Assembly (NCBI GenBank): GCA_030697645.1
Contig: JAUYPI010000004.1
Coordinates: 1,141-65,140 of the forward strand
Origin: a bacterium
Lineage (GTDB): Bacteria > Patescibacteriota > Minisyncoccia > Phycocordibacterales > VMGT01
DNA length: 64,000 nucleotides
Direction of reading: 5' to 3'
Both the position numbers and the translations under genes were made by a program. Below are positions 4,735 through 63,954 of the stretch, piece after piece. Under the pieces are notes generated by a model. The model did no database searches and was not told where the DNA came from. It saw only the letters and a list, made by a program, of their open reading frames with translations. Numbering within the stretch: position 1 is the first letter of the stretch; every line of letters starts with the position of its first letter.

Positions 4735-4868
4735 CAAAAATTTACAATTTTCAATTTTGCAATTTTCAAATAATTTTCAATGTGTCAATGACTCAATGAC
4801 GACGACGTCGTTCGTGTTTGAAAATTGCTTCATTGAAAAATTGATTGAAAATTGAAAATTTTGTTGGC
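4735..4868. repeat. modular palindromic element: (CAATTTT)n - core caatgacgacgacgtcgttcgtgtttg - (AAAATTG)n
   Basis: 7-mer tandem arrays in inverted orientation around an AAACACGACG-type core; sits immediately upstream of rseP. Confidence 0.6.
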
Positions 4869-7235: not shown

Positions 7236-7414
7236 TAGACCTCTTGCATAACCCGCTCCTGCTACAATTTCTGATTTTTGGCTGCGACTTCGTCGAGTTT
7301 CGCAAAATGATTCTCGTCGTACAACAAGTACGCCGTCGAATCATTTTGCTCACTCTCCTCGTCTCGCTCAAAAATTAGAAATCTCGCGACGAAGCGGGTT
7401 ATGCAAGAAGTCTA
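7236..7414. repeat. ~180-bp TIR-bounded palindromic element (family TAGACCTCTTGCATAACCCG...CGGGTTATGCAAGAGGTCTA), copy 1
   Basis: One of 6 near-identical copies; internal nested inverted repeats (gcaaaatggttc/gaaccattttgc etc.); ends at the nucleotide before the ATG of the 7415 gene. Confidence 0.85.
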
Positions 7415-7723
7415 ATGAAATCCTACCCGATCAAAAACGAACTCGACTTTCTTATCGCGCGCGCAGAGAGCGAGCGTTCGGAGATGCAGACGCTGCTCGA
7501 TACTTCTCGCCGCGATGGCGATTATTGGAGAGAGAAGGCTACAGCGAAGCTCGCGACGTTTCTCGGCCTTGAGGTGCAATTTCTCTCGCGCCTTGCCGAG
7601 CTCGAGAGCGATTATCCCGAACTGGCCGCCGCCATCGAGGAGCGTAAGCGCTACCTCGCGGCTCTCGTAAGCGAGGCGCGGGCGATGTACGCCGCCTGGC
7701 AGGGTGCCGCGGAACAGACATGA
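7415..7723 (+). CDS. hypothetical protein
   Basis: 102-aa charged/helical ORF; ATG abuts the repeat element; 4-nt overlap with the downstream gene. Confidence 0.45.
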   Translation: MKSYPIKNELDFLIARAESERSEMQTLLDTSRRDGDYWREKATAKLATFLGLEVQFLSRLAELESDYPELAAAIEERKRYLAALVSEARAMYAAWQGAAEQT

Positions 7724-26060: not shown

Positions 26061-26239
26061 TAGACCTCTTGCATAACCCGCTCCTGCTGCGATTTTTGAT
26101 TTTTGGCTGCGACTTCGTCAGCCGTCGCAAAATGGTTCTCGCCGTACAACAAGTACGCCGTCGAACCATTTTGCTTGTCTTCCTCGTCTCGCTCAAAAAT
26201 CAAAAATCTCGCCACGAAACGGGTTATGCAAGAGGTCTA
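26061..26239. repeat. ~180-bp TIR-bounded palindromic element, copy 2
   Basis: Starts 5 nt after the tRNA-Phe 3' end; TIRs tagacctcttgcataacccg / cgggttatgcaagaggtcta. Confidence 0.85.
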
Positions 26240-27788: not shown

Positions 27789-27936
27789 GTAACTGCTCAC
27801 GCTGATCACAATACTACGTAACAGAGCCGTCTTTGCGAGGAGCGGAGCGACGAAGCAATCCAGAGCGAGTAACACAAACCTCCTGGATTGCTTCGCTCCT
27901 TTCGGTCGCTCGCAAAGACGGGTGTGAGCAGTGACC
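27789..27936. repeat. nested palindromic element, family GTCTTTGCGAGGAGCG...CTGGATTGCTTCGCTCC (GIY-YIG-associated family)
   Basis: Outer arms gtaactgctcacgc / gtgtgagcagtgac; inner ctttgcgaggagcgg / tcgctcgcaaag; related to 54838, 58443, 61716, 63293 and the arms flanking the GIY-YIG gene. Confidence 0.7.
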
Positions 27937-31016: not shown

Positions 31017-31261
31017 CATGAGCCCATGCTCTTCAACCGCACCGCGCTCGGCTTTATCGTGGGTTTTAGCGCTGTCATCGCGCTGAGTTTCGCTTTGATG
31101 GTGTTTGCCGGAAGACAGGCAGCAGATAAAGAAACGGCCGCACGTGCCGCATCCGAACTCGAAAGCAGACGTTGACATTTATTCGCGGCTCGTGTAGGGT
31201 CTTTATCATAAGATAGAGGCCGAAGAAGCAGATAGGCCGCAGCGCGCCGTGCTCGGCGCGA

Positions 31262-31400
31262 AATTTTCAATTTTCAATTTTCAATTTTCAATCAATGGCC
31301 AATGTTCCAATTTCCAAACACGACGTCGCCGTCCGTCGTTTGAAAATTGCCTCATTGAAAATGTATTGAAAATTGAAAATTGGAAATTGAAAATTCCCGC
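31262..31400. repeat. modular palindromic element ((ttttcaa)n - ccaaacacgacgtcgccgtccgtcgtttg - (ttgaaaa)n)
   Basis: Replaces the expected fusA/tuf position after rpsG. Confidence 0.6.
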
Positions 31401-32011: not shown

Positions 32012-32079
32012 ATTTATCAGCAGTACTTTTTACCGCTCTATAAAATTTATTAGAGATCAGTACATAAACAGGCGTAAGA

Positions 32080-32198
32080 ATTTTCAATTTTCAATCAATG
32101 ACCAATGTTCTAATTTCAAACACGACCACGACGTCCGTCGTTTGAAAATTGTCTCATTGAAAATGTATTGAAAATTGAAAATTGAAAATTGAAAATTT
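32080..32198. repeat. modular palindromic element (copy nearly identical to 31262-31400)
   Basis: ttttcaa arrays + caaacacgaccacgacgtccgtcgtttg core; between rplJ and rplL. Confidence 0.6.
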
Positions 32199-33560: not shown

Positions 33561-33739
33561 TAGACCTCTTCGGAAATTCCTTTCTGCTGCAATTTCTGAT
33601 TTCTGGCTGCGACTTCGGAAAGTATCGCAAAATGATTCTCGTCGTACAACAAGTACGCCGTCGAATCATTTCGCTCACTTTCCTCGTCTCGCTCAAAAAT
33701 CAGAAATTTCGCCACGAAAGGAATTTCCGAAGAGGTCTA
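33561..33739. repeat. ~180-bp TIR-bounded palindromic element, copy 3 (variant TIR tagacctcttcggaaattcc...ggaatttccgaagaggtcta)
   Basis: TIR stem differs from copies 1/2/6 but stays self-complementary (compensatory). Confidence 0.85.
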
Positions 33740-34455: not shown

Positions 34456-34533
34456 AAGGTGAAGAGTGGAAAGCAGAAGACTCCCCTTGCGTTCGGCATA
34501 CGCATGGTGTATTTTGATGTGTACATTTTGCAT

Positions 34534-34714
34534 TAGACTTCTTGCATAACCCGTTTCGTGGCGAGATTTTTGATTTTTGAGCGAGACGAGGAAGACAAGC
34601 AAAATGGTTCGACGGCGTTACTCGGTTGTACGGCGAGAACCATTTTGTGAAGTCTGACGAAGTCGCAGCCAAAAATCAAAAATCGCAGCAGGAGCGGGTT
34701 ATGCAAGATGTCTA
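34534..34714. repeat. ~180-bp TIR-bounded palindromic element, copy 4 (inverted orientation)
   Basis: Reverse complement of copies 1/2; its terminal gcaagATGtcta supplies the first in-frame ATG of the secY ORF. Confidence 0.85.
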
Positions 34715-34725
34715 TACGTTCGATC

Positions 34726-37233: not shown

Positions 37234-37432
37234 TCGCTACCTCCCCTGATTTTTAACAACGAACATCTTCCTCGGACTCATCCCACGCTGCTTTATATCT
37301 ATGGAAATGTCAAGCTCCGCGGGACTGGCCGATGTGTTGGTCATAAGGATGTCTAACATTATAGCTGGCCGTGTCAGTCATCCGATGTCACACACAGCAG
37401 TTGTGTGTCATCGGACGTCGGACATTGCAGCG

Positions 37433-37640
37433 TTGACAACCACGGCGCGAGCCGTAGACTGAAAACATAAAAAAGTTCTACATCTCTCTCGCCACCCTCT
37501 GTATTTTGTCGGCGGTGTTTGGTATTTGGACAGCGAGCCGCGCGGGTAGCGAAGAGATCAGTGCATGCGTCGGCACCTCTGGCCTCATGCGCTCTCTCGC
37601 GAGCGGCGAGTGCCGTCGCGGAGAAACGGGATTTAAATAG
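37433..37640 (+). pseudogene. duplicated 5' fragment (upstream region + first ~55 codons) of the secreted-protein gene at 40165; start codon mutated (ATG to ATA)
   Basis: ~90% identity to 40133-40330 (ttgacaaccacggcgcga...aaaaagttctacatctctctcgcca...), reading KKFYISLATLCILSAVFGIWT... then premature stop. Confidence 0.6.
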
Positions 37641-37654
37641 CCGAGGAGGTAGCC

Positions 37655-38485
37655 GAGGAGGGTCAGACCCTCCTCGGTTTGCAGAGCCATCGGTTTACAT
37701 ACTATGTGGTAGGATAATGCTAATGCCGCGACAGACGAGACAGTTTGAAGAGGGCGGGATTTACCATGTCCTCAATAGAGGAGTTGAAAAGAGAAAAATA
37801 TTTTCCAAGACGCAAGATTACCACCGCTTTATACTTGGACTTGAATTTTTCAACTCATCCGATACTACCGACCTGTGGCATCTTCTTGCCCGAGGAGGGT
37901 CTGACCCTCCTCGGGCAAGAGTACAGTCGGTGGGCGAGAGGCTTGCGTCGCAGCGCACGAAGCAAAAATGGCATCTCGTCGATCTCCTTGCTTTTGTGCT
38001 TATGCCAAACCACTTTCATCTTATACTGCGCGAGATTCACGAAGGGGGTATTTCTGCGTTTATGAAAAAGCTGGGTGGATACGCCATGTATTTTAATAAA
38101 CAATATCATCGCGTCGGTCCGCTTTTTCAGTCGCGCTATAAGGCGGTACCGATAAAAAGTGACGCACAACTTTCAGTGATTTATACCTACGTGCATACTA
38201 ATCCGGTAGAGATCATTGAGCCGCTGTGGAAGAAGGAGAACAAGGTGTTTCATCTCGACAAAGCGCTCGCGTACCTCAATGAATATCCTTGGACGAGTTA
38301 TCATGACTATGTGGGGAGGCCACAGTTTCCTTTTGTTACCCAGCGTGATTATTTGTCCGATTACTTTGGGAGCGCACAGGCGTGTCAGAGGGAAGTAGAG
38401 GAGTGGGTAGAGCACAAAGCGGCGATGGCTGACTTTGATCGGCGCGAGTTTGAGTAAGGCAGCAGAGGAGGGTCAGACCCTCCTC
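37655..38485 (+). mobile_element. REP-RAYT unit: RAYT gene bracketed by REP hairpins GAGGAGGGTCAGACCCTCCTC
   Basis: REP copies at 37655-37675 (upstream), 37892-37912 (inside the CDS, inverted centre) and 38465-38485 (8 nt after the stop). Confidence 0.7.
37717..38457 (+). CDS. REP-associated tyrosine transposase (RAYT; IS200/IS605-family Y1 HuH transposase-like)
   Basis: IYHVLNRGVEKRKIF (N-terminal strand, cf. YHVVxRTKYR), HuH motif MPNHFHLIL, catalytic Tyr region FQSRYKAV; 11 codons (LLARGGSDPPRA) are encoded by an in-frame REP copy. Confidence 0.75.
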   Translation: MLMPRQTRQFEEGGIYHVLNRGVEKRKIFSKTQDYHRFILGLEFFNSSDTTDLWHLLARGGSDPPRARVQSVGERLASQRTKQKWHLVDLLAFVLMPNHFHLILREIHEGGISAFMKKLGGYAMYFNKQYHRVGPLFQSRYKAVPIKSDAQLSVIYTYVHTNPVEIIEPLWKKENKVFHLDKALAYLNEYPWTSYHDYVGRPQFPFVTQRDYLSDYFGSAQACQREVEEWVEHKAAMADFDRREFE

Positions 38486-39947: not shown

Positions 39948-40126
39948 TAGACTTCTTCGGAAACCCCTTTCGTGGCGAAATTTTTGATTTTTGAGCGAGA
40001 CGAGGAAAGCGAGCAAAGTGACTCGACGGCGTACTTGTTGTACGATGAGAGTCATTTTGCGAAGCTTGACAAAGTCGCAGCCAAAAATCAAAAATTGCAG
40101 CAGAAGGGAGTTTCCGAAGAAGTCTA
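39948..40126. repeat. ~180-bp TIR-bounded palindromic element, copy 5 (inverted orientation, variant TIR)
   Basis: tagacttcttcggaaacccc...ggagtttccgaagaagtcta; left boundary of the surface-protein island. Confidence 0.85.
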
Positions 40127-40164
40127 TTGGTTGACAACCACGGCGCGACCCGTAGGATGAAATC

Positions 40165-40833
40165 ATGAAAAAGTTCTACATCTCTCTCGCCACGCTCTGT
40201 ATTTTGTCTGCGGTGTTTGGCATTTGGACACTCAGCCGCGCAGGGGGCGAAGAGATCAGTGCATGCGTCGGCCCCTCCGGCCTCATGCGCTGGCTCGCGA
40301 GCGGCGAGTGCCGCCGCGGCGAGACCGAGCTCAATTGGAACGTGCAGGGGCCGCAAGGTTTACAAGGCGAGCGTGGACCGGCAGGGTCACAACTCCATTT
40401 GTTTGACGCAAGCGGGCAAGATCTCGGGGTACTTCTCGATATAGATAACGACATTCGCGAAAATGGGACTGGTTTTCGTACTGATTTTCCGTCTTTAGAC
40501 GCCGTGTTCGATTTTCAGTCATCTGTAAACCCGCCTTCATTTATTGTCTCTTCGAACTTATTGCCTCGCGGTTTGGTTTTTAGTGAATCAGATTGCTCAG
40601 GGATGCCATTTGTCGTTGAGCGACCGCTCCATGACTACACGGTAACCGAGTTTGACGGCTCGTATTATATGACCGGAGGCGTAGACAGCGATCCGGGCAC
40701 CGCAATGTCATACTTTGACAACACTGGCCGCGTTTGCATGAACATTCTACCGGAAGCGACCTCGACCTTTCCGCTTGTAAAAATAGTCCTTCCTTTTACT
40801 CTGCCCCTTGCGTACCCTCCTATGATTGATTAA
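40165..40833 (+). CDS. secreted protein with short collagen-like (G-X-Y) segment
   Basis: Signal peptide MKKFYISLATLCILSAVFGIW; GPQGLQGERGPAG triple-helix-type repeat. Confidence 0.55.
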   Translation: MKKFYISLATLCILSAVFGIWTLSRAGGEEISACVGPSGLMRWLASGECRRGETELNWNVQGPQGLQGERGPAGSQLHLFDASGQDLGVLLDIDNDIRENGTGFRTDFPSLDAVFDFQSSVNPPSFIVSSNLLPRGLVFSESDCSGMPFVVERPLHDYTVTEFDGSYYMTGGVDSDPGTAMSYFDNTGRVCMNILPEATSTFPLVKIVLPFTLPLAYPPMID

Positions 40834-40892
40834 AAATAGGTAAGGACACCGTCTGAAAAAATTTGTTCACTTGCCCGCGAATGTTAGACATC

Positions 40893-41068
40893 GGATGTCT
40901 AACATTTCACGAAATTCGAAATCCGAAGCACGAAATACGAAACAAATCAGAATGACCAAAATATAAATACTCGAAACACGACGGCCGTATTTTGAACATT
41001 AGGACATTTGGATTTTGATATTGTTTCGGATTTCGATATTCGTGCTTCGGATTTAGGTTTTCTTTATG
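40893..41068. repeat. modular palindromic element (cgaaat arrays around cgaaacacgacggccgtattttg)
   Basis: Same architecture as the 30367-30535 element; abuts the 41066 start. Confidence 0.6.
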
Positions 41069-41953
41069 CTTTCTTTTCTCCGCAGACATTTGATTCTTTC
41101 GCTCGGCGCGCTCGCGCTGTTTGCTTTTATTTTTAGCGAAGCTGTGTTTGCGCTTCCGGTGCGGCTCCTCACCTGGGAGCCGGAGCGGCTTGCGCCGAGC
41201 TCGATTGCGCCGGGGGAGGAGGTGACTTACACAGCAATTTTTACGCCGACGCTTCCGGTGCCGAAAGTGGAGAGTCTCACCGCCTCGCTCACGGGTCCGG
41301 CGGCGGACTTCCTAACCTCGCTCACGGTTGATTTGCCGACGGAGACAGGGAACACGCTTCGCGGCGGGACGAGTGTTCCGGTGCGGCTCGCGGTGCGCGT
41401 TCCTCTCGGCGCTGTCGTTGGGAGCTACCCGGGTACACTCACCCTGCGCTACGGCGAGGATGGTCTGCCGCTCCTTTTTGCGCCCGACCTTGCGGTGGAG
41501 CTCACGGTGTCGACCGTTCCCGTCCCGCCTGACCCGGGTAAAGCAGGGAAGGAGACGATCGCGGGGATTGACGTGAACACAAACGGCGTCCGCGACGATG
41601 TCGAGCGCTTCATCGTCTTCTCCTATAACGACATCACTCCAGAGCACGAGAATACAAGGAACGCGCTGTTCCAATATGCAGGGGCGGCGCAGGAGGGGCT
41701 GATGAACGCCGCAGACAAAGTGCAGGCGAGAGCGGAAGGGGAAGAGTTGGATCAAGCGCAGAATTGTCTTTGGGCAGTACGCGGCACCGAGGAGGGCAAC
41801 ACCGCTAGTTCGATACTGACAGCACAAATGTTCAACACAGTTGCTCGGACACGACAGTGGAGCATGTTTAATCAACAACTGAGCGGTCTCGTTTCTGTGT
41901 TAGAAACGAATGAAGAAATTTTACGAGGCGACTGCTCCTTTGAGATTCAGTAG
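41066..41953 (+). CDS. secreted hypothetical protein
   Basis: Signal peptide; Pro/Thr-rich beta-type N-terminal half. Confidence 0.5.
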   Translation: MLSFLRRHLILSLGALALFAFIFSEAVFALPVRLLTWEPERLAPSSIAPGEEVTYTAIFTPTLPVPKVESLTASLTGPAADFLTSLTVDLPTETGNTLRGGTSVPVRLAVRVPLGAVVGSYPGTLTLRYGEDGLPLLFAPDLAVELTVSTVPVPPDPGKAGKETIAGIDVNTNGVRDDVERFIVFSYNDITPEHENTRNALFQYAGAAQEGLMNAADKVQARAEGEELDQAQNCLWAVRGTEEGNTASSILTAQMFNTVARTRQWSMFNQQLSGLVSVLETNEEILRGDCSFEIQ

Positions 41954-41963
41954 TTTTGGCTTT

Positions 41964-43109
41964 ATGACGGCGAAATTGTTTCCCATCGTCGTTGCGCTGC
42001 TTCTTGTTTTCGGCTATGCACAGTCAGCGCACGCTTCCGCGTGCGCTGAACCGACAATGTCAATCTTTTTCGTAAACGGGATTGGCAACACTCGTGAGGA
42101 AGCGCGGCAATCTACGAAGGTTCTGGCAGACCATCTTTACACACATGCCGAAGTCACGCCGGAGTGCGTTCAAGTGGGTCTCGCCTACAATCACAACGAA
42201 CCCCTTTTTCTCGACTGGGTTGAGGCGTGGGAGCAGAAGATGGCGGAGGTGGACGACTTTATGGTCACGTTTTGGCTCTTCCTCGGTAGAGTCGCTGGCG
42301 CATCGGACGTGTTCCTCGCGACACTCTATAACGCCGTCACCCTTATTGACCCGCCAGCATACCTCATCGACGCCGATCTTGATGAGCACCTCGCCGCCTA
42401 TCGCAGCGAAATCACCGTAGGCCGCAAAGTGATCGCTGTCCCACACTCTCAAGGAAACTTTTATGCGAACGAAGCATGGGAAAAGCTTACCCCAGAAGAG
42501 CGCGCGTCTTTCCACATCGTCGCTGCCGCAACTCCGTCGGTGAGCGTGGCAGATGGCGGCCCCTACACGACGCTCGATGAAGACAAGCTGATCGCCGCCA
42601 TTCCGCTCTCACTTCCCTCAAACCTCACGAACGGCTCCGACTTCTCCTGCGAGGACGACTGGAAGTGCCATGGGTTCAAGGAGACGTATCTCAAGGCGAG
42701 TGCGGCGAGCGAAGACAAAATCGTCGAGGACATTCTCGCTTTGCTCATCGTCCCCCCTCCGCCTTCGCCCGAGGAGTTCGCGGAGCTTCGCGGCACCGTG
42801 ACCTACCAAATCAGACCTGATGATCCGATTATCCCCGCAGTCGGCGCGTCGTCCACCCTGCTTGCGGCGCCGGTCGGCGTTCGTGTTTACCAATACGCGA
42901 CGACCAGCGTTGATGCGGACGGCCACTATAGCTACCAGAATCTTCCTCTGGGACGCTACGTCCTTCGTTTAGAGCATCCCACGATCAGCCTGAACTTTAT
43001 TTTTTTCCTCGGTATGATTATTGATCAGCCGAAGACCTACATTCAGGATATACACTGGGGGCCGCTGCCGCCAGAGGCATGGGATTGTCTACCGCTGTGT
43101 GCGGAGTGA
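41964..43109 (+). CDS. secreted alpha/beta-hydrolase-like (lipase/esterase-type) protein with C-terminal carboxypeptidase-regulatory-like beta domain
   Basis: Signal peptide; nucleophile-elbow-like AVPHSQGNFY; C-terminal DGHYSYQNLPLGRYVLRLE. Confidence 0.45.
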   Translation: MTAKLFPIVVALLLVFGYAQSAHASACAEPTMSIFFVNGIGNTREEARQSTKVLADHLYTHAEVTPECVQVGLAYNHNEPLFLDWVEAWEQKMAEVDDFMVTFWLFLGRVAGASDVFLATLYNAVTLIDPPAYLIDADLDEHLAAYRSEITVGRKVIAVPHSQGNFYANEAWEKLTPEERASFHIVAAATPSVSVADGGPYTTLDEDKLIAAIPLSLPSNLTNGSDFSCEDDWKCHGFKETYLKASAASEDKIVEDILALLIVPPPPSPEEFAELRGTVTYQIRPDDPIIPAVGASSTLLAAPVGVRVYQYATTSVDADGHYSYQNLPLGRYVLRLEHPTISLNFIFFLGMIIDQPKTYIQDIHWGPLPPEAWDCLPLCAE

Positions 43110-43348
43110 CAAAACATTAACGACGCTTTACAGCGAGTACGCTTTGTTTCGTAACTGTATTTTTGATGAGTTATGCGTTGACAGAGAAGAGCGCACGTCC
43201 GTAGTATGAACATTACGAGTGACGAGGTAACAGTTACCTGTTACTAAAATTGCATCTCGCGGGGGAAACCGGGGTGCATAGCAGACGAATGCTATGCAGA
43301 CCAGTTTTTCTCGCGATTTTCTTTTGGGCGCACAGGGAGTGGAGGTGA

Positions 43349-43396
43349 AAAACAAACCCGTCACGCGGTTCTTTGCCGCGTGACGGGTTTGTTTTT
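43349..43396 (+). terminator. long perfect hairpin + T-run (aaacaaacccgtcacgcgg...ccgcgtgacgggtttgtttttt); first of three consecutive hairpins (to 43502)
   Basis: 21-bp perfect stem; followed by a 23-bp-stem hairpin 43398-43462 and a 11-bp-stem hairpin 43466-43502. Confidence 0.5.
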
Positions 43397-43607
43397 TGAG
43401 CCCACACGTTGGCGCGTCTCGGTATTCATAAAATGTAAGCGAGACGCGCCAACGTGTGGGCTCCGGGAGACAACATGGAGTTTTGCGACGTCATGTTGTC
43501 TCTGCCGAGGAGCTCACACAGGTCGATACCGGAGGTTTCTTCCGTTTACCATATGGGACGGAGGAAATAGATGTTCCGGCTTTATTGTTTTAACACGTAA
43601 TTTCTCT

Positions 43608-44663
43608 ATGATCAAGAAATTTGGAGTATTCCTTCTCGCACTCGCGGTCGTAGCGGTCGCAGCGCCGGTTCCCGGCGCGGATGCCGCAACCCTCTCGAGG
43701 CAGATCCACGTCACGAACGTGAACTCTGCCTGGGTGGGTACCGGACTCTACGTCTCTGCCAACAGTGGCTCTAATTCAGCCATGGGCGGTGACGGCGGTG
43801 AGGCAGGTGACAGCGGGGAGAGCGGCAACTACGGCGGTGATGCAGGTAACGGCGGTGAGGGCGGCGACGCAGGCAGTGGCGGCACAGGCGGCGATGCGAA
43901 CGGCGATGGTGATGGTGACTGGGGTGGCGACGGTGGCATGGGCGGCACAGGCGGCGACGGCGCCGAAGGCGGTGACGGTGGCGATACCGGGGACACCGGC
44001 AATGGTGGGATGGGCGGCATGGGCGGTGACGGCGGTTCGGTGACGACAGGAGACGCTTCAGCCGATGTGACCGTGCTCAACGATGTGAACTTCAACGACA
44101 CCGACATCACCGACGAGTGCGGTTGCGATGACCCATCGTTCGAGGAGGACGCGAGCTCTTCATGGGAGATGCGCGAAGATGACGACCGTCACTGGGAGGC
44201 GGCATCCGAGAGTTATTCCACACACGCCGTTGAGGAAGAAAACATTATTGACGTTACGAACGTCAACGGTGCAGAGGTGGGGACTGAGGGTGCTGTGTAT
44301 GCCGATACCGGTTACAACGACGTTGATGGCGGTGAAGGTGGAGAAGGCGGGGAGACGGGTAACAGCGGCGACTCAGCAGGCGAGGGTGGTAACGGTGGCG
44401 AGGGTGGCGAGGCAGGCAGCGGTGGCGATGGCGGCGATGCGAATGACGTAGGCGCTGAGGACACCGGCGGCAATGGCGGTGATGCCGGCCAGGGTGGCAT
44501 GGGTGCCGAGGGTGGCAATGGTGGCGACACTGGAGACTCGGGCGCTGGCGGCGCCGGTGGCAATGGCGCCATGGGCGGCTCTGTCACCACGGGCAACTCG
44601 GGCATTTTCGCAGCAGTCGTTAATCTCGTGAACCAGAACATCACCCGCATCACACGCAAATAG
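43608..44663 (+). CDS. secreted Gly/Asp/Glu-rich repeat protein (GGDGG-type repeats)
   Basis: Signal peptide MIKKFGVFLLALAVVAVAAPVPGADA; long GG(D/E)(A/G)G arrays; modules VTTG-x-A/S...VN-x-VN-x-N shared with the giant protein. Confidence 0.55.
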   Translation: MIKKFGVFLLALAVVAVAAPVPGADAATLSRQIHVTNVNSAWVGTGLYVSANSGSNSAMGGDGGEAGDSGESGNYGGDAGNGGEGGDAGSGGTGGDANGDGDGDWGGDGGMGGTGGDGAEGGDGGDTGDTGNGGMGGMGGDGGSVTTGDASADVTVLNDVNFNDTDITDECGCDDPSFEEDASSSWEMREDDDRHWEAASESYSTHAVEEENIIDVTNVNGAEVGTEGAVYADTGYNDVDGGEGGEGGETGNSGDSAGEGGNGGEGGEAGSGGDGGDANDVGAEDTGGNGGDAGQGGMGAEGGNGGDTGDSGAGGAGGNGAMGGSVTTGNSGIFAAVVNLVNQNITRITRK

Positions 44664-44777
44664 TGTTGACGCAAGGGTGAAGTTTAAAGTCCTCGACTCG
44701 ACGACTCTCGTCGGCTCGTAGGCGAAGGCGCGGAGCTTGTGACTCCCGCCTTCCACAGCCCTTTTTGAAAAAGGGCT

Positions 44778-45428
44778 GTGGAAGGCGAATGCAAAATGGA
44801 AAAATCAAAAATTAAAATGCCAATGCAAAATACAAAATTGTCTCTGACGATTCTCGGTATTTTTGGATTGGCGTTCGTGTCAGATGTTGCCGATGCGAAA
44901 AGTGTATCCGTTCAAAACATAATCTCGGTTTTTTCTTCAAGCGGCGGGAATGTGGCACGGGAGGGCGAGATCGTGGAGGGAAAAGCGGAGAGCGAGGTCT
45001 TTGTCGAGACACGGGTCAACGGCGCGGTTGTCGAGAGCTACGATTCGAGAAAAGTCGTTGAGGAGAGTGCGGTGGTAGCAGACCTACACACGCAGCAGTT
45101 TAACGATTCGTTCGAGAGTGAGGATGGCTCGGTAGAGACGCATGTGTCGCTAGAAAATAGTGTTGGATATCCGAAAAGTGCGGGGCATCGGATGTCCCGC
45201 AGTACCGTGGAACAGCCGATGTCCACTGTTTCGAGCTCGACGAATGCCACCGCGACGGCAGAAGCGCAGATTGCCGCAACGAGAACCGCGGCAGCCACAT
45301 CGTCCGCAGCAACCACCTCGCTCTTTGCCGCCGGAGCGAGTAATGAGGAATCAGCGGCGCAGAGGTCATTATTCAAAAGAGCGTTCAAGTTTATAGCGTA
45401 TGTCTTTTCTTTCAAGTGGATTTTTTAA
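44778..45428 (+). CDS. secreted hypothetical protein
   Basis: Signal peptide (LSLTILGIFGLAFVSDVADA), Ser/Thr/Ala-rich C-terminus; start ambiguous (44778/44817). Confidence 0.4.
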   Translation: MEGECKMEKSKIKMPMQNTKLSLTILGIFGLAFVSDVADAKSVSVQNIISVFSSSGGNVAREGEIVEGKAESEVFVETRVNGAVVESYDSRKVVEESAVVADLHTQQFNDSFESEDGSVETHVSLENSVGYPKSAGHRMSRSTVEQPMSTVSSSTNATATAEAQIAATRTAAATSSAATTSLFAAGASNEESAAQRSLFKRAFKFIAYVFSFKWIF

Positions 45429-48400
45429 TACGGCGTTCGTGCGGCGCGTGCTCGCGGGCGTGATGGTTGTCGCTCTCCTTATGGTGAGCGCGGTACCGCT
45501 CTCAGTGATTGCCGAGGACGGAGGCGGGGATGTTGTCGCGACCGAGGCCACTCTAGGTGAGAGAGGGACTGACGGGACAGATGGCACCGACGGCGCGGAC
45601 GGTCGCGATCGCGGCGAGCGTGGGACGCGAGATGGTAGCGATGGAGAAGACGGCGGCACGGGCGAGGGCGGCGAGGATGGGAGCGGGGATGAGAGTGGCA
45701 CGGAAGGCACATCCCCTGGAGACGGGACGAGCGGCGAGGATGGCACGGGTACCGAGGAGACTCCAGACGGCGCGGACGGGACTTCTTCAAGCGACACGGG
45801 CAACCAGAGCACGAGCGGCGAAGGGGACACGAGCATCACGACTGGTGCTGCCACGGCCGTGACTGACGTAACGACCAAAGGGAACGTGAATAGCACCGAC
45901 ACAGAGGCTCTAAGCGAGGACGGAAGCGGCAACATTGATGGGAGCGGGAGCGCAAACGGTGGCGGTGGAGGCACCACAGATTCCGGGTCCGAGACCCCAC
46001 CTGCTGCTGATGATGCTGCTGATGATGCTGATGCGCACACGCGCGACGACCGCCGCGACAGCAAAGTGCTCGATAAACGGCCACGTGACAGTGCGACAAC
46101 GACATCGCTTGAGACCATCATCGAGTCTGAAAACGATATCACCGTTGCAAACGAGAATGAGACTCTGGCGTCGAGCGGCTTAAACAGCGCGGGTGGAAGC
46201 GGCTCGGTCAGCGTCACGACCGGCACGTCAACCGCATTTGCAAATATACTCAACGCGGTGAACGTGAACCTGGTGAACTCAAGCGGCCTCATGCTTTTCT
46301 TCAACAGTCTTTTCGGCTCGCTCGGCACGCTTGATCTCCGGACCGCGCTCGGAGGAGATGATGCGCTTATCGGGGGCGGCATTTTTGGCGAGCGAGAACC
46401 CTCGATCGGCACGTGCACCTTCAGTGGCTGCGCGGGCGATGTTTCGACGCGGATATACGCCTCGAGCACCGCGCGGATCTTAAACGACATCATCGTACGC
46501 TCGATCGCGGGGCAGAATGTGGCAACGACGAGTGGCGAGCTCGCACGCATTGATTCCGGCGATGCGCTCGCCGGAGCGAACGTCGTCAATGTTGCGAACA
46601 CGAATATCGTCAATTCAAACTATCTCCTGCTTGCCCTCAACGCCTTCGGCGACTGGGCGGGGGACCTCGTATTCCCGAATGGTGATTTTTTCAAACAAAT
46701 TTTTGGCGGCGGGGCTCGCGGGTCTGGCGACATCGAGGAGGACGAAGAAGGCAGCGAAGCGCACTCACTCGTCGCGAGTACAACGATCGCAAGTACGAAC
46801 ACCGCGGGAGTAGAGAATGAACTCGACGTTGACGCTCGATCGGGCGGGAACGCCGCGACATCGACTCTCGGGAGCGCCGAAATCGAGACCGGCTCCTCGG
46901 CCGCGCTGTCTCAGGTGGTGAACCGGCTCAATCAGAACATCATCGGCGGGAATTCGATGCTTGTACTCCTTCAGATACATGGCGACTGGGCGGGTAATCT
47001 CTTCAACGTCCCCGAGGGGATTCTCTGGGAGAGGACGCCCGGGGGAGTCGCGATTTGGAATGATCCGAATTATGCGGGAGGAGCGGTGGGAGCGGGTACC
47101 AGCGGCTCCAGCGAGGGAGAGGAGGGCAGTCTCGGAGTAATCGAAGACGCTCTCGTGCCGCTCTCGGAGCTCACCGTTTCGCGCGGTGACCGCGAGGCGC
47201 GCCGCGCAGCGCGCGACGCCTCGGACGAGGAGCGTCGCGGTACCACGACGACCGAGATTCTTCACCAAAACGTCGCGGAAATCGCCAACAACGTGAAAGT
47301 CCTCGCGCTCACCGGAGAGAACCGAGCGCAAAGTGTTGGCGATTCACTCATCACGAGCGGGAACGCGCTTGCCGCGGCGAACATCCTCAACATCGCAAAC
47401 ACGAACGTGATCGGTGCGAACTGGATGCTCGCGCTCGTCAATATCTTCGGCGACTGGAGCGGCAACCTCTCGTTCGGCGAGCCGGACCTCTGGATAGGCA
47501 CGACTGTTGACGCGCCGCGGAGTCCCCTAGAGGCCGGCGACGAGCTCACGTATCACTTTACGGTCGCAAACCGTGGCGACGCGCGCGCAAGCAACGTGTG
47601 GCTCAATGCGCGAGCCACCGGCGATCTCATTGCGTTTGATCGGAGCTTTACCGATTCGCTCGGCGACGCGCATTTCTATCTGGGTACGCTCGCGCCCGGC
47701 GATGTGCGGGAGCTCTCGCTCACGGGGCATCTCGATACGCCGCTTCCGTTCGGGAGGCACACGATTGACCATACGTTCGCGATCGCAAGCTACGAGCCGG
47801 AGACGAACCGCGCCGACAACACGGAGACACTCTCGCTCTTTGCATTTGGCGGCGAGGCGCCGGCGACGGGTAGCAGTACCGGCAGCGGCGAGAGCGGCAG
47901 CGGCGCGGGTTCCGGTTCCGGGGAGAGTGGAAGTGGTGCGGGCAGTGGCGGTTCGGACGTTAGTGCAGGCGGGGGCTCGTCAGACGAGAGTGCAGGCGGC
48001 GGTTCAGGCAGTGGCGGTAGTGACGGTGGTATTGGCACAGGCGATACAAACTCCGGCGGGAATACTGGCAGCACAGGGGGCAGCAGCGGCGGCAGTCAAA
48101 GCGGCAGCGGGGGCGCCTCTTCAGGTGGTTCTGGAGGAGGGGGTGGCGGCATTTACTATACGCCGCCAGCGGACTTAGAGATAGAAAAGCGCAACGGCGC
48201 GACCTCACCGGTTCCCGCCGGAAGCTCGGTGGACTACACCGTAGTGATTCAGAATGACGGCCTCGGCGAGGCGTACCACGCCGTGCTGGTCGATGTTCTG
48301 AAAGACAAAGACGGCACGGTGATTCACGAGGAGAGTTGGTCACTTGAGACGATTTATCCAAGCGAGGAGGTGACGGTGAAGTATACGATCGAGTTCAGCC

Positions 48401-49146
48401 TGAATACCGCTCCCGGAACCTACACGAACAGCGCCTACGTGAAGGCCTACGACGGCCATCCCTCGCTTGATCCATTTTACGGTTCTGCCGCGGATTCTCC
48501 GACGGTGACAAGCACGGTTGAGATCAGCAGCGCTTCGGTTTCGTCTGGCTCCTCTGGTACGGGAGGTGGAGGCGCGAACACGACGACGACAAATACAACA
48601 AACACGAATTCGACGGGCACAACACCGCCACCCGCGGCACCCGTGCCGCTATCCCAGAACGAGACCGCGAGCTCGACTAGCGCGACCACAAGCAGCACGC
48701 CCACCACCACTCCGCGAGCGACCTCCTTCAGAGCGACGGCTATCGCAGCAGCGCCAGCGCCGACGAATCCCATTGCCGCGGCGCTCTCGCCTTTCTCGCC
48801 CGCCTTGCTCGGGGCCACCCTCCCTGCGCCAAGTGGCACTCCGGCGTTTGAAGATTTTGAAGATTCAGGTGCCGCCCGCGCGGCGGTGCGAGAGAGCGGT
48901 ATCGCCCGGGAGCGGATTCTTCCTACACTGTCCTCTACGGGCGCGGAACCAGCAAGCGAGACATCGGGAGCACTCACCTCGCGAGACGAGGGGTCGCTTA
49001 CACCCCTCTCTGGCCTCGCGCACGCGGCAGCGGCATTTCTCGCGAGTCTCCCCATTCCGGCATCCATATTTTTGCCGATATTTCTCTTGGTCCTTGTGCT
49101 TGTTGGCATGCTGCTCTTCACTCGTCCTTCTGGCGCCCGGGCATAG
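45400..49146 (+). CDS. giant (1248 aa) cell-surface repeat protein with collagen-like G-X-Y tract, repeated beta modules and C-terminal TM anchor
   Basis: Signal peptide; GERGTDGTDGTDGADGRDRGERGTRDGSDGEDGG; >=4 copies of module ...TSGNALAAANILNIANTNVIGANWMLALVNIFGDWSGNL...; DUF11/CARDB-like segment; C-terminal hydrophobic anchor LPIFLLVLVLVGMLLF. Confidence 0.65.
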   Translation: MSFLSSGFFNTAFVRRVLAGVMVVALLMVSAVPLSVIAEDGGGDVVATEATLGERGTDGTDGTDGADGRDRGERGTRDGSDGEDGGTGEGGEDGSGDESGTEGTSPGDGTSGEDGTGTEETPDGADGTSSSDTGNQSTSGEGDTSITTGAATAVTDVTTKGNVNSTDTEALSEDGSGNIDGSGSANGGGGGTTDSGSETPPAADDAADDADAHTRDDRRDSKVLDKRPRDSATTTSLETIIESENDITVANENETLASSGLNSAGGSGSVSVTTGTSTAFANILNAVNVNLVNSSGLMLFFNSLFGSLGTLDLRTALGGDDALIGGGIFGEREPSIGTCTFSGCAGDVSTRIYASSTARILNDIIVRSIAGQNVATTSGELARIDSGDALAGANVVNVANTNIVNSNYLLLALNAFGDWAGDLVFPNGDFFKQIFGGGARGSGDIEEDEEGSEAHSLVASTTIASTNTAGVENELDVDARSGGNAATSTLGSAEIETGSSAALSQVVNRLNQNIIGGNSMLVLLQIHGDWAGNLFNVPEGILWERTPGGVAIWNDPNYAGGAVGAGTSGSSEGEEGSLGVIEDALVPLSELTVSRGDREARRAARDASDEERRGTTTTEILHQNVAEIANNVKVLALTGENRAQSVGDSLITSGNALAAANILNIANTNVIGANWMLALVNIFGDWSGNLSFGEPDLWIGTTVDAPRSPLEAGDELTYHFTVANRGDARASNVWLNARATGDLIAFDRSFTDSLGDAHFYLGTLAPGDVRELSLTGHLDTPLPFGRHTIDHTFAIASYEPETNRADNTETLSLFAFGGEAPATGSSTGSGESGSGAGSGSGESGSGAGSGGSDVSAGGGSSDESAGGGSGSGGSDGGIGTGDTNSGGNTGSTGGSSGGSQSGSGGASSGGSGGGGGGIYYTPPADLEIEKRNGATSPVPAGSSVDYTVVIQNDGLGEAYHAVLVDVLKDKDGTVIHEESWSLETIYPSEEVTVKYTIEFSLNTAPGTYTNSAYVKAYDGHPSLDPFYGSAADSPTVTSTVEISSASVSSGSSGTGGGGANTTTTNTTNTNSTGTTPPPAAPVPLSQNETASSTSATTSSTPTTTPRATSFRATAIAAAPAPTNPIAAALSPFSPALLGATLPAPSGTPAFEDFEDSGAARAAVRESGIARERILPTLSSTGAEPASETSGALTSRDEGSLTPLSGLAHAAAAFLASLPIPASIFLPIFLLVLVLVGMLLFTRPSGARA

Positions 49147-49176
49147 GCCCATGGCTCGTCATGGCGCACGGCGTAT

Positions 49177-49355
49177 TAGACCTCTTGCATAACCCGCTCC
49201 TGCTGCGATTTTTGATTTTTGGCTGCGACTTCGTCGGACTTCGCAAAATGGTTCTCGCCGTACAACAAGTACGCCGTCGAACCATTTTGCTTGTCTTCCT
49301 CGTCTCGCTCAAAAATCAAAAATCTCGCCACGAAACGGGTTATGTAAGAGGTCTA
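49177..49355. repeat. ~180-bp TIR-bounded palindromic element, copy 6
   Basis: Right boundary of the surface-protein island; forward orientation. Confidence 0.85.
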
Positions 49356-49392
49356 TTGACAGCGCGTTTTGTATTGCTACACTATGGTTATT

Positions 49393-54837: not shown

Positions 54838-55005
54838 AAGTGCTCACACCCCCTCACAAGGCATCGTAACAGAGCCGTCTTTGCGAGGAGCGGAGCGATC
54901 CCACGCTATGCTCTGGACAGGCTCCGCAATCCAGAGCGAGTAACGTAAAACCCCTGGATTGCTTCGCTCCTTTCAGTCGCTCGCAAAGACGAGTGTGAGC
55001 ACTTA
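54838..55005. repeat. nested palindromic element, GIY-YIG-associated family
   Basis: gtcgtaacagagccgtctttgcgaggagcg...ctggattgcttcgctcc...cgcaaagacgagtgtgagcact. Confidence 0.7.
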
Positions 55006-55172
55006 CTTCGTTTGCAGGAAATTTATGCCATTTCGTCACCAATTTAGAGCGATCGCATAAAATTGGTGACGATGAGAAACGGAAAGCGTGCAAAGCGTGC
55101 AGTGGCCCTCGGCGCCGTACCTGTCTCTGATTTGCAAATGCAAATTTTATTCGTGCCTGCTACTATCGGTCT

Positions 55173-58442: not shown

Positions 58443-58815
58443 GTAACCGCTCACACCTACCACAAGACTGTCTAACAGGGCCGTCATTGCGAGGAGCGAA
58501 ACGGAGTGGAGCGATCCCACGCTATGCTCTGGACAGGCTCCGCAATCCAGAATTACGGCTCAGCAACTGGATTGTTTCCTGCCTACCGGCAGGCAGGCGC
58601 TCCGCTCGCAATGACGGGTGTGAGTGATTACGGCTAGAGGTAAGTGCTCACACCCGTCTTTGCGAGCGACTGAAAGGAGCGAAGCAATCCAGGGGTTTTA
58701 CGTTACTCGCTCTGGATTGCGGAGCCTGTCCAGAGCATAGCGTGGGATCGCTCCGCTCCTCGCAAAGACGGCTCTGTTACGAGGCCTTGCGAGGGGTGTG
58801 AGTGATTACGGCTAG
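58443..58815. repeat. two back-to-back inverted copies of the GIY-YIG-associated nested palindromic element
   Basis: Copy A 58443-58640 and copy B (reverse complement) 58625-58815 share gcgatcccacgctatgctctggacaggctccgcaatccag. Confidence 0.7.
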
Positions 58816-61599: not shown

Positions 61600-62005
61600 C
61601 TATCGTTTGCTGCCCACCATGTTTGAGACGGCCGCTACACTACCTGTAGCGGCCGTATTCTGTGTCGCACTACTGGATCACAGGCAAAAGCACTGGCAAG
61701 GAGGCGGGCGGCGTACGTCTTTGCGAGCGGAGCGAAGCAATCCAGGGCGATGACCTACAATTCTCTCGACACGTCTCTCGCTTGGGCGCACACTACGGTG
61801 TTGTTTGACACCTCCCCGATGCTCTCGTCTACTCCGCTATCCACACCCCGCGCACAGTTTTTCCCCTTGACGCTTGAAGCGCAGAAGCTGATGATGTTGA
61901 TATAACGCATTGAATCACCGCGCGCGGCTCCTGCATGTATGTAGAGAGTGGGTTGTCCTGTATTAATAACAGCCGTGCCGTCGTTCATTCGTTTCCCATG
62001 GACGT

Positions 62006-63292: not shown

Positions 63293-63477
63293 GCGTTAAG
63301 TAACCGCTCACGCCTATCACCACACTGCTTAACAGAGCCGTCATTGCGAGGAGCGGAACGGAGGGAGCGATCCCACGCTATGCTCTGCTCTGGACAGGCT
63401 CCGCAATCCAGAATTATGCGCAAAAACTGGATTGCTTCGCTCCGCTCGCAATGACGAGCGTGAGCGCTTACGCCGTT
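63293..63477. repeat. nested palindromic element, GIY-YIG-associated family
   Basis: gtaaccgctcacgcc...gtcattgcgaggagcgg...gcaatccag...ctggattgcttcgctccgctcgcaatgac...gcgtgagcgcttac. Confidence 0.7.
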
Positions 63478-63663
63478 AATCCTTCACGAATCCGGCCTCT
63501 CTTTTTTGAGGGGCTGGGAGGTGAGGGATTGAGAGGAAATGTCTGTGAATGACGAAATTGCCGACGGAGACAGCCGAGTCGTACATTCGAAGCACGAAAT
63601 ACGAAACTAAACTTTGGCAAATTTCGTCATTGCGAGCGAAGCGAAGCAATCCAGGGGAATGTT

Positions 63664-63954
63664 CTACAATTCGTTCGACAAGTCTCGCCACGTCGGATTC
63701 ATCGCCTCGACAAGCGCAAGCTTCTTCTTCCGAGAACCACCTTTGATCTGTTTCTCACGGGATATGGCAGCATACATTGTCTCATGCACTTCGTAATATA
63801 CGAGAGTATGTACATGGTATTTTTTTGTAAATCCGTCCACTGCTTCCGACCGATGTTCCTGCAACCGTCTTTGCAGATGCGATGTTACCCCAGTGTACAA
63901 CGTGCCGTTTCGTCGGCTCGCAAGGATGTACACACATGGGATCATTCCTGACAT
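63664..63954 (-). CDS. GIY-YIG nuclease family protein (UPF0213/YhbQ-like), embedded between inverted arms of the nested-palindrome family
   Basis: CVYILASRRNGTLYTGVTSHLQRRLQEHRSE GIY-YIG motif; arm fragment gtcattgcgagcgaagcgaagcaatccagggg at 63626-63656 and its reverse complement ccctggattgcttcgctccgctcgcaa at 63974-64000. Confidence 0.7.
   Translation of the reverse strand: MSGMIPCVYILASRRNGTLYTGVTSHLQRRLQEHRSEAVDGFTKKYHVHTLVYYEVHETMYAAISREKQIKGGSRKKKLALVEAMNPTWRDLSNEL

Follow-up and report, generated by a model that had tools for sequence, protein, structure and literature searches.

A conserved three-gene cassette for predicted surface proteins with a common, apparently undescribed module in Parcubacteria/Paceibacteria-type loci

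The chaplins of Streptomyces consist of long proteins that are anchored in the cell wall (ChpA-C) and of short secreted proteins (ChpD-H). In the curli proteins CsgA/CsgB and the Bacillus subtilis proteins TasA/TapA, a major subunit is secreted and a cell-associated partner serves as nucleator or anchor, and these partners are related or have imperfect repeats. Another group is the fibrillar adhesins, the stalk domain of which, DUF11, has been renamed CLIPPER and is a CnaA-like domain that is stabilised by isopeptide bonds (PMC12617251; structure 9IFR). The system described here is encoded on the + strand of a 64,000-nucleotide (nt) stretch of a Patescibacteria contig (assembly GCA_030697645.1, JAUYPI010000004.1), which is called the window in the following. 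It comprises the gene 43608 (open reading frame (ORF) 43608-44663, 351 amino acids (aa)), a small gene (44778/44796-45428, 210 aa from the ATG at 44796) and a giant gene (45400-49146, 1248 aa). An earlier note on this DNA had regarded them as half of a six-gene island in the region 39948-49355. This region is not one unit. Only the three genes named above stay together, with conserved composition and order, across the fetched Parcubacteria/Paceibacteria-type loci for which enough upstream DNA was available, and the cassette is an uncharacterised lineage-wide surface system of ultra-small Patescibacteria.

The giant protein and the described surface systems

The giant protein begins with a signal-like N-terminus, which has a hydrophobic core and a heuristically assigned site between VIA and ED. 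An acidic, G/D/T-rich region with a half-module (nt 45826-45909) comes next, followed by four full modules (nt 46102-46335, 46435-46680, 46768-47019 and 47239-47487). The remainder contains a first CLIPPER/DUF11 domain (nt 47488-47850), a G/S linker of about 100 aa, a second CLIPPER/DUF11 domain (nt 48172-48453), an S/T/A/P-rich linker, and a putative transmembrane anchor (nt 49024-49119). The DUF11/CLIPPER match to Pfam PF01345 reached 49.8 bits, with a cutoff of 24.6 bits. In the second domain a lysine (in LEIEK), an aspartate (in LVDVL) and an asparagine (in YTNSAYV) were found by inspection at the positions expected for the isopeptide triad, and these three columns are at least 90% conserved in 71 giant sequences. 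The first domain has no lysine in its first strand. The hydrophobic anchor that the earlier note had claimed for the end of the protein was confirmed: a hydrophobic helix at aa 1209-1240, with a Kyte-Doolittle maximum of 2.94, precedes the tail TRPSGARA.

The giant has several features in common with the CLIPPER fibrillar adhesins, namely the signal-like N-terminus, a distal non-stalk domain, the Ig (immunoglobulin)-like CLIPPER domains and the C-terminal anchor, and it passes the gathering score of PF01345. In contrast to these adhesins, it has only two CLIPPER domains, which are split by the low-complexity linker, instead of a long tandem stalk. Its anchor is a plain transmembrane helix without an LPXTG, PEP-CTERM or OmpA-like motif, and its distal part consists of the four unannotated modules, which occur also in two co-conserved neighbours. 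The giant is a variant of the known CLIPPER-containing surface proteins. Two further types of surface structure do not fit. No LPXTG, PEP-CTERM or PGF motif was found by a motif scan at the six C-termini and no sortase by a Pfam search among the six genes, which speaks against sortase-assembled pili and LPXTG surface proteins. The collagen-like surface proteins of the Scl/BclA type do not fit because a long uninterrupted G-X-Y array is missing. The earlier note had reported collagen-like tracts in two genes. Short G-X-Y runs are indeed present, but the longest have five triplets (40165) and six triplets (giant), no Pfam Collagen match was obtained for the six proteins, and the Gly-rich arrays of 43608 are of the type (G-G-X)n, with about 50% Gly, and are encoded by degenerate 9-nt repeats.

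The C-termini of the giant homologues vary. A Kyte-Doolittle value of 1.8 was exceeded within the last 60 residues by 41 of 114 homologues. One type of ending is a transmembrane helix with a basic tail, which is preceded by a recurrent ...(N/Q)xxAAAF/LASL... segment, and this segment may be an unrecognised sorting signal. The other type is an amphipathic tail, ...FIDLFKNIFKQRRIFQ..., which resembles the C-tail ...FKYVFSIF of the small family. In addition, some homologues carry PG_binding_1 (PF01471) instead of the transmembrane helix.

The three proteins follow the same logic as the chaplins, an anchored multi-domain protein together with shorter secreted proteins that have a small beta-rich domain in common, the co-assembly being a proposal in the present case. 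The differences are that there is no sequence relationship (no Pfam match, the chaplin domain included), that the module of the trio has about 80 aa with 22-residue strands, and that the anchor of the giant is a transmembrane helix and not a sortase signal. With curli and TasA/TapA the trio would share the pairing of a secreted subunit with an anchored partner, and its Asn/Gly-rich repeat positions recall the curlin repeats. However, no machinery of the CsgG/E/F type or the SipW type is present near the cassette, neither the window proteins nor 20 members of the 43608 family matched the Pfam models Curlin_rpt or TasA/camelysin, and the hosts of the trio are monoderm-like Patescibacteria.

The shared module and the conservation of the cassette

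The giant contains four complete copies of the module, which has about 80 aa, and an N-terminal half copy, 43608 contains two copies that are split by Gly-rich inserts, and the small protein contains a half-module (aa 35-76, nt 44898-45023, from the family alignments), which was absent from the earlier note. The consensus of the giant modules (71 aligned sequences) is N-x-N-x-A-x-I-x-N-x-V-x-V-x-A-x-T-G-x-N-x-A-x-G-x-G-x-A-x-I-x-T-G-D-A-Y-A-x-A-N-V-V-N-x-A-N-T-N-I-x-D-S-N-Y-L-L-x-x-F-N-N-F-G-D-W-x-G-D, and the consensus common to the three products is N-x-N-x-A-x-V-x-N-x-V-x-V-x-A-x-T-G-x-N-x-A ... I-x-T-G-D-A-x-A-x-A-N-V-V-N-x-A-N-T-N. The invariant columns are occupied almost entirely by Asn, Gly, Thr or Ala. 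Each module of the giant adds closing strands, ...S-N-Y-L-L-L-x-F-N-N-F-G-D-W-x-G-N. The comparison of the giant module with the 43608 family by hhalign gave 97.8% and E = 7e-13, and the comparison with the small family gave 93.7% and E = 2e-7. These sequence similarities support a common ancestry of the module copies in all three proteins. Alignment and hhalign thus confirmed the recurring beta-type module that had been noticed before in 43608 and the giant.

The claim that the module is novel was supported: searches of Pfam, NCBIfam and the PDB sequences gave no match to it, and it is distinct from DUF11. With a module profile, 3,432 cluster representatives (clusters of 50% identity) among 1.84 billion were detected at an E-value threshold of 1e-3 and 1,092 at a threshold of 1e-30, and the top matches typically had five matched stretches. 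The AlphaFold2 model of aa 235-830 of the giant (71 sequences) had a predicted local distance difference test score (pLDDT) of 82.6 and a predicted template modelling score (pTM) of 0.77. It contained four all-beta modules and then an Ig domain with seven to nine predicted strands. Each module is predicted as a meander with very long beta-strands of about 22 residues; the model shows a single strand of this length per module, besides two short ones and one each of 11 and 10 residues. Fold searches with this model, which includes a CLIPPER domain, yielded only Ig-like matches. Literature searches found no paper that describes the module or the trio. The source names are all "hypothetical" and family models are lacking, and thus the module and the conserved trio appear to be undescribed.

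The 43608 protein has a signal-like N-terminus, a first module (aa 33-166, nt 43704-44105), a second module (aa 213-351, nt 44244-44660; both from the family alignment) and the C-terminal sequence NITRITRK. A (G-G-X)n insert divides each module, and the two are connected by a CGC linker. In its family the insert has a length of 0 to about 90 residues and expands the turn after T-G-x-N-x-A-x-G-G, and the linker C-G-C-(D/E) between the modules is conserved. The closing strands S-N-Y-L-L-L...F-G-D-W of the giant modules are missing; instead the family terminates right after ...V-V-N-V-V-N-R-N-I-T-R-I-R-R, with an invariant-type end ...N-I-T-R-I-x-R. All 145 homologues are named "hypothetical" in the sources, and the only recorded domain is one chance match to PF02934.

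In the small family a signal peptide is followed by V-x-N-x-V-S-V-S-A-S-T-G-G-N-x-A-x-G-G-x-V-x-x-G-x-A... and by the segment V-N-G-E-V-V-E-D. Beyond a variable region the C-tail, ...F-K-x-V-F-S-I-F, is again conserved and is hydrophobic or amphipathic. The C-tail of the small protein in the window, ...FKFIAYVFSFKWIF, is hydrophobic or amphipathic. The ORF proposed by the earlier note as gene 44778 exists, but its start was probably placed too far upstream: it is most likely the ATG at 44796 (210 aa, as in L002, an independent public assembly of the same organism) or that at 44823 (201 aa, as in the NCBI annotation). The GTG at 44778 is disfavoured and sits within a perfect 20+20-nt palindrome (44747-44787, CGCCTTCCACAGCCCTTTTT G AAAAAGGGCTGTGGAAGGCG) between the stop codon of 43608 and the ATG at 44796. 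The 3' arm of this palindrome holds the only Shine-Dalgarno-like sequence, GGAAGG, and the palindrome may serve transcription attenuation after the putative major subunit or translational control of the small gene. The stop of the small gene overlaps the start of the giant gene by 29 nt, and with gene calls from other sources the overlap is 26 nt in the related locus L004 and 20 nt in L006. The NCBI annotation lists the giant as Q8R39_01000 and the small protein as Q8R39_00995, both as "hypothetical protein [bacterium]".

A protein search with the module region of the giant detected 179 proteins. Among the matches listed, most had 800-1000 aa and were 32-41% identical over nearly the full query. 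The informatively named ones stem from Parcubacteria/Paceibacteria lineages and are listed there as "hypothetical" or occasionally "peptidoglycan-binding", and the Pfam domains recorded for them are only DUF11, DUF7507, CARDB, NPCBM_assoc, PG_binding_1 and a few others. A scan with the module pattern in one genome per GTDB species revealed relatives of the giant in at least 186 genomes. The informatively titled records are all from Parcubacteria/Paceibacteria lineages and include Kaiser-, Zambryski-, Taylor-, Giovannoni-, Nomura- and Wildermuthbacteria, Paceibacterota and Minisyncoccia; the lineage statement covers these records, and many others bear the generic, unconfirmed title "uncultured Candidatus Saccharibacteria". 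The gene neighbourhood was analyzed with family hidden Markov models (HMMs) wherever 1.5 kb or more of upstream DNA was available, i.e., in 68 loci. All 68 have a 43608-like gene upstream of the giant on the same strand, and in 46 of them a small-family ORF abuts the giant. These counts are partly circular, since 19 and 27 of these very loci had served to build the HMMs A4 and A7. Six genomes have two or more tandem 43608-like paralogues.

Possible functions of the cassette

The giant is probably, by a narrow preference, a protein of the fibrillar-adhesin type that is anchored in the membrane and has two co-conserved partners with the same module, and the three would together form an anchored extracellular fibre or sheet. 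The C-terminal helix would hold the giant in the cytoplasmic membrane, and its linkers (G/S and S/T/A/P) and CLIPPER domains would form a stalk in the style of the fibrillar adhesins that displays the stacked N-terminal modules at the surface. The secreted two-module 43608 protein could dock onto this module stack or extend it by beta-sheet augmentation; extension is proposed because the closing strands are missing and because some genomes have tandem paralogues. The model of the 43608 monomer was poor (pLDDT 55.7, pTM 0.31), with only four strands of 24-26 residues and with the Gly-rich inserts as coil; together with the shared module and the missing closing strands, it would be indirect support for a polymerisation on the anchored paralogue. 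The small, co-translated protein might act as an adaptor or cap, and the resulting fibre or sheet would serve the attachment to surfaces or host cells. Fibre formation by the trio is possible by analogy with the known systems. The most far-reaching version is an undescribed fibre system of the sampled Paceibacteria lineages, parallel in mechanism to chaplins, curli or TasA, and a host- or surface-attachment organelle of ultra-small episymbionts in which the anchored four-module stack templates the polymerisation of a secreted, Gly-rich two-module subunit, with the small protein as adaptor or cap and with an unrelated fold that has strands of about 22 residues; this version is unlikely. The claim that the locus is a cell-surface or adhesion locus is supported for the core, for which the signal-like N-terminus, the DUF11/CLIPPER stalk, the anchor and the module-sharing neighbours speak, but not for a six-gene unit.

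Several points weigh against an anchored fibre or sheet. Enzymes for assembly, secretion or sorting are not conserved next to the cassette. The signal peptides and the transmembrane anchor of the giant are heuristic calls, and interaction or polymerisation of the three proteins is inferred. The small family was detected in only part of the loci, short unassigned ORFs filling its slot in most others, and the synteny counts have the partial circularity mentioned above. The poor model of the 43608 monomer may reflect no more than the Gly content of about 50% of its inserts.

The main rival explanation is that the three proteins do not polymerise: the giant would be a stand-alone fibrillar adhesin the modules of which bind a ligand, and the upstream proteins would be independent soluble or membrane-associated paralogues that act as decoys, matrix or coat. 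The order of signal peptide, distal novel domain, CLIPPER stalk and anchor is the classic layout of fibrillar adhesins (PMC12617251), the modules of the giant are predicted to fold confidently alone, and the missing assembly machinery would also fit. However, the strict gene order in all 68 loci, the translational overlap of the small gene with the giant gene, and the missing closing strands and the invariant-type C-terminus of the 43608 family would be left unexplained, and this explanation is considered somewhat unlikely. A weaker rival is a surface layer or envelope lattice, in which the trio would form a two-dimensional coat and neither a fibre nor an adhesin. It would agree with a family that is class-wide and numerous, as the counts of cluster representatives given above indicate, with three proteins that all look secreted, and with the giant homologues that have PG_binding_1 in place of the helix. 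No SLH or other known S-layer anchoring domain was detected with Pfam and NCBIfam, however, and the long disordered linkers and the CLIPPER stalk suggest projection from the cell over a tight lattice, which makes a coat quite improbable. The last rival, a mobile island, is essentially excluded by the results described in the next section.

The 179-nt element and the surroundings of the cassette

The region is enclosed by two copies of a 179-nt element (39948-40126 and 49177-49355), which had been interpreted as inverted copies of a terminal inverted repeat (TIR) element that border a mobile or rearranged, composite-transposon-like island. Both copies are real, and they are 83% complementary to each other, which would suit such an island. 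They are not specific for its borders, because the window contains six copies in both orientations, the others being located at 7236-7414, 26061-26239, 33561-33739 and 34532-34720. Each copy is a near-perfect hairpin (DNA fold of -52.7 kcal/mol, z = -12.6, for the copy at 49177), and the differences between the arms of the copies are compensatory (CTTCGGAAA/TTTCCGAAG versus CTTGCATAA/TTATGCAAG). The element is therefore self-complementary, any pair of copies scores as direct as well as inverted (repeats D15 and I1), and "inverted" says little.

All six copies are located 0-40 nt upstream of a gene start on the + strand. The left copy lies 39 nt upstream of the ATG of 40165, the right copy directly upstream of a promoter-like site and of the start of the next gene, which encodes a DUF7282 protein (49369/49393-50082), the copy ending at 7414 abuts the ATG at 7415, and the copy ending at 34720 lies just before a SecY-like gene. 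Due to these positions the copy at 39948 belongs to the 5' region of 40165 and the copy at 49177 to the DUF7282 gene. The left copy is followed by the promoter-like site TTGACA-16-TAGGAT (40131-40158), the right one by TTGACA-16-TACACT (49356-49383). The distance from the end of each site to the respective ATG (40165 and 49393) is only about 7-10 nt, and the mRNAs would be leaderless or nearly so. The positions of the copies and the compensatory changes suggest that the element is a transcribed 5'-leader hairpin, a promoter-carrying element or the result of a promoter-targeted insertion.

Further results bear on the mobility of the six genes. The outer flanks of the two enclosing copies do not share a target-site duplication (...GAGAT at the left, TTGACA... 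at the right). None of the six proteins matched a transposase or integrase in Pfam or NCBIfam. The core is ancestral to the lineage, and none of the loci fetched from about 80 related genomes contains the element. The earlier note had held that the locus would be a common one if relatives had the genes in synteny without the elements and if the module was a well-known domain such as DUF11; the relatives do keep the core genes syntenic without elements, but the module is another one. In one public assembly of the same organism (GCA_034376905.1, JAXMIX010000189.1) window position 49358 continues via the element into 26241-21951 in reversed orientation. This junction joins the region to the right of the copy at 49177 to the region at the copy at 26061 and marks the element as a breakpoint of rearrangement or of assembly, a point in favour of an island. 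The identity to the window is 99.98% for the left part of the junction and 98.7% for the right part, which fits a repeat-mediated chimeric assembly, and the join looks more like such a chimera or a strain mixture than like proof of an inversion. The element also breaks short-read contigs, since other public contigs of the same organism stop inside copies, and a contig with an empty site or an alternative location of the block was not found among the other public assemblies, which break at the elements. A transposase gene of the RAYT/IS200 type and a duplicated 5' fragment of 40165, which are described below, lie 2.5 kb to the left and would suit an island, but they are outside the block. With the dispersed element, left genes that are unlinked to the core, a terminator-like spacer inside and the core present in relatives without the element, an island that moved or was rearranged as a unit is hardly credible.

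The element resembles miniature inverted-repeat transposable elements (MITEs) and REPIN-like repeats, as it is short, non-coding, intergenic and present in several copies and has the potential to form a long hairpin. Like MITEs it has terminal inverted repeats (TAGAC...GTCTA) and possible TA duplications, and it fragments short-read assemblies. In contrast to such repeats, all copies directly precede gene starts, no matching transposase that shares the ends of the element was detected in the window, and the sole nearby transposase is of the RAYT/Y1 type. The known partners of RAYTs, the REPs, are much shorter than 179 nt. The elements should not be read as island borders here, and they explain the fragmentation of assemblies at their positions.

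The three left genes are 40165 (40165-40833, 222 aa), 41066 (41066-41953, 295 aa) and 41964 (41964-43109, 381 aa), all on the + strand. L002 has identical calls for all six ORFs (222, 295, 381, 351, 210 and 1248 aa), and the N-termini of all six products have a basic n-region, a hydrophobic core and an AxA-like site upon heuristic inspection, in agreement with the earlier claim of six ORFs with signal peptides. The 40165 product appears to be a secreted or membrane protein with a Cys-containing N-terminal motif and without a match in Pfam, NCBIfam or PDB. A homologue was found close to the cassette in only one related genome (L004/L008), downstream of the giant of that genome. The 41066 product is predicted to be secreted and could not be assigned to a family, as Pfam gave only sub-threshold Ig-like hints. 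The 41964 product, likewise predicted to be secreted, has a weak CarboxypepD_reg/SdrD-B-like beta-sandwich at its C-terminus and, by inspection, an HSQGN motif that resembles the nucleophile elbow of Ser hydrolases. For 41066 and 41964 no homologues were found in 80 related loci. The three genes are outside the conserved core; they encode lineage-specific secreted proteins and lie in transcription units separate from the core.

The genes 41964 and 43608 are separated by a spacer of about 500 nt, and its part 43205-43607 (+ strand) is a chain of at least five consecutive perfect hairpins, with a minimum free energy of the RNA of -208.6 kcal/mol (z = -14.7). The hairpins include the inverted repeats I3, I6 and I7 and are not repeated elsewhere in the window. 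The stem at 43348-43400 resembles a bidirectional intrinsic terminator, with A5 and T6 on its sides. Rfam had no match in the spacer or in the rest of the region. This terminator-like chain lies between the left and the right gene triplet, and the six genes do not form a single operon.

An 89% identical copy of the 40165 promoter and the first 54 codons is present at 37432-37627 (codon part 37467-37628), with the start codon ATG changed to ATA. It is followed by a GC-rich hairpin and by the RAYT/IS200-like Y1 transposase gene (37723-38457; Pfam Y1_Tnp, E = 3.7e-7; NCBIfam REP_Tyr_transpos below the cutoff). The segment resembles a truncated paralogue that was left by a local rearrangement.

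A palindrome had also been reported inside the small gene. Its location was correct (GGGCATCGGATGTCCC at 45183-45198, within the coding region), but it is imperfect and is one copy of a dispersed motif, GACATC(C/G)GATGTC, which has 10 matches in the window versus 1.2 expected, the sites including 36042, 37377, 37407, 40887, 45184 and 54044. At 40883-40905 the motif forms a perfect 23-nt palindrome, ATGTTAGACATCGGATGTCTAACAT, the arms of which resemble the TAGAC/GTCTA ends of the 179-nt element, and the copies at 45183 and 54042 both contain GATGTCCCGCAGT. The motif may represent an operator, a REP-like site or the footprint of an element. Another family of dispersed repeats, with ...GTCTTTGCGAGGAGCGGAGCGA...GCAATCCAGA..., forms hairpin arrangements at 27789-27936, 54850-55009, 58443-58809 and 63300-63412 and also at 61716-61777 and 63625-63686, and in one pair the arms, each of 160 nt, show 98% complementarity. 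Additional families of short A/T-rich repeats are found near 4754-4860, 31261-31395 and 32079-32198, and the genome is unusually rich in intergenic palindromic repeats.

The attachment of the uncultivated Paceibacteria/Parcubacteria to hosts or surfaces is poorly understood, and beyond type IV pili there are few envelope structures for which candidate genes are available. The module can be recognised by the diagnostic motifs TG-x-N-x-A, TGDA-x-A, NVVN-x-ANTN and FGDW-x-GN and by the C-terminal NITRIRR, and it is a new family for annotators. The cassette and the module are concrete targets for metatranscriptomics, antibodies, cryo-electron tomography and heterologous expression.

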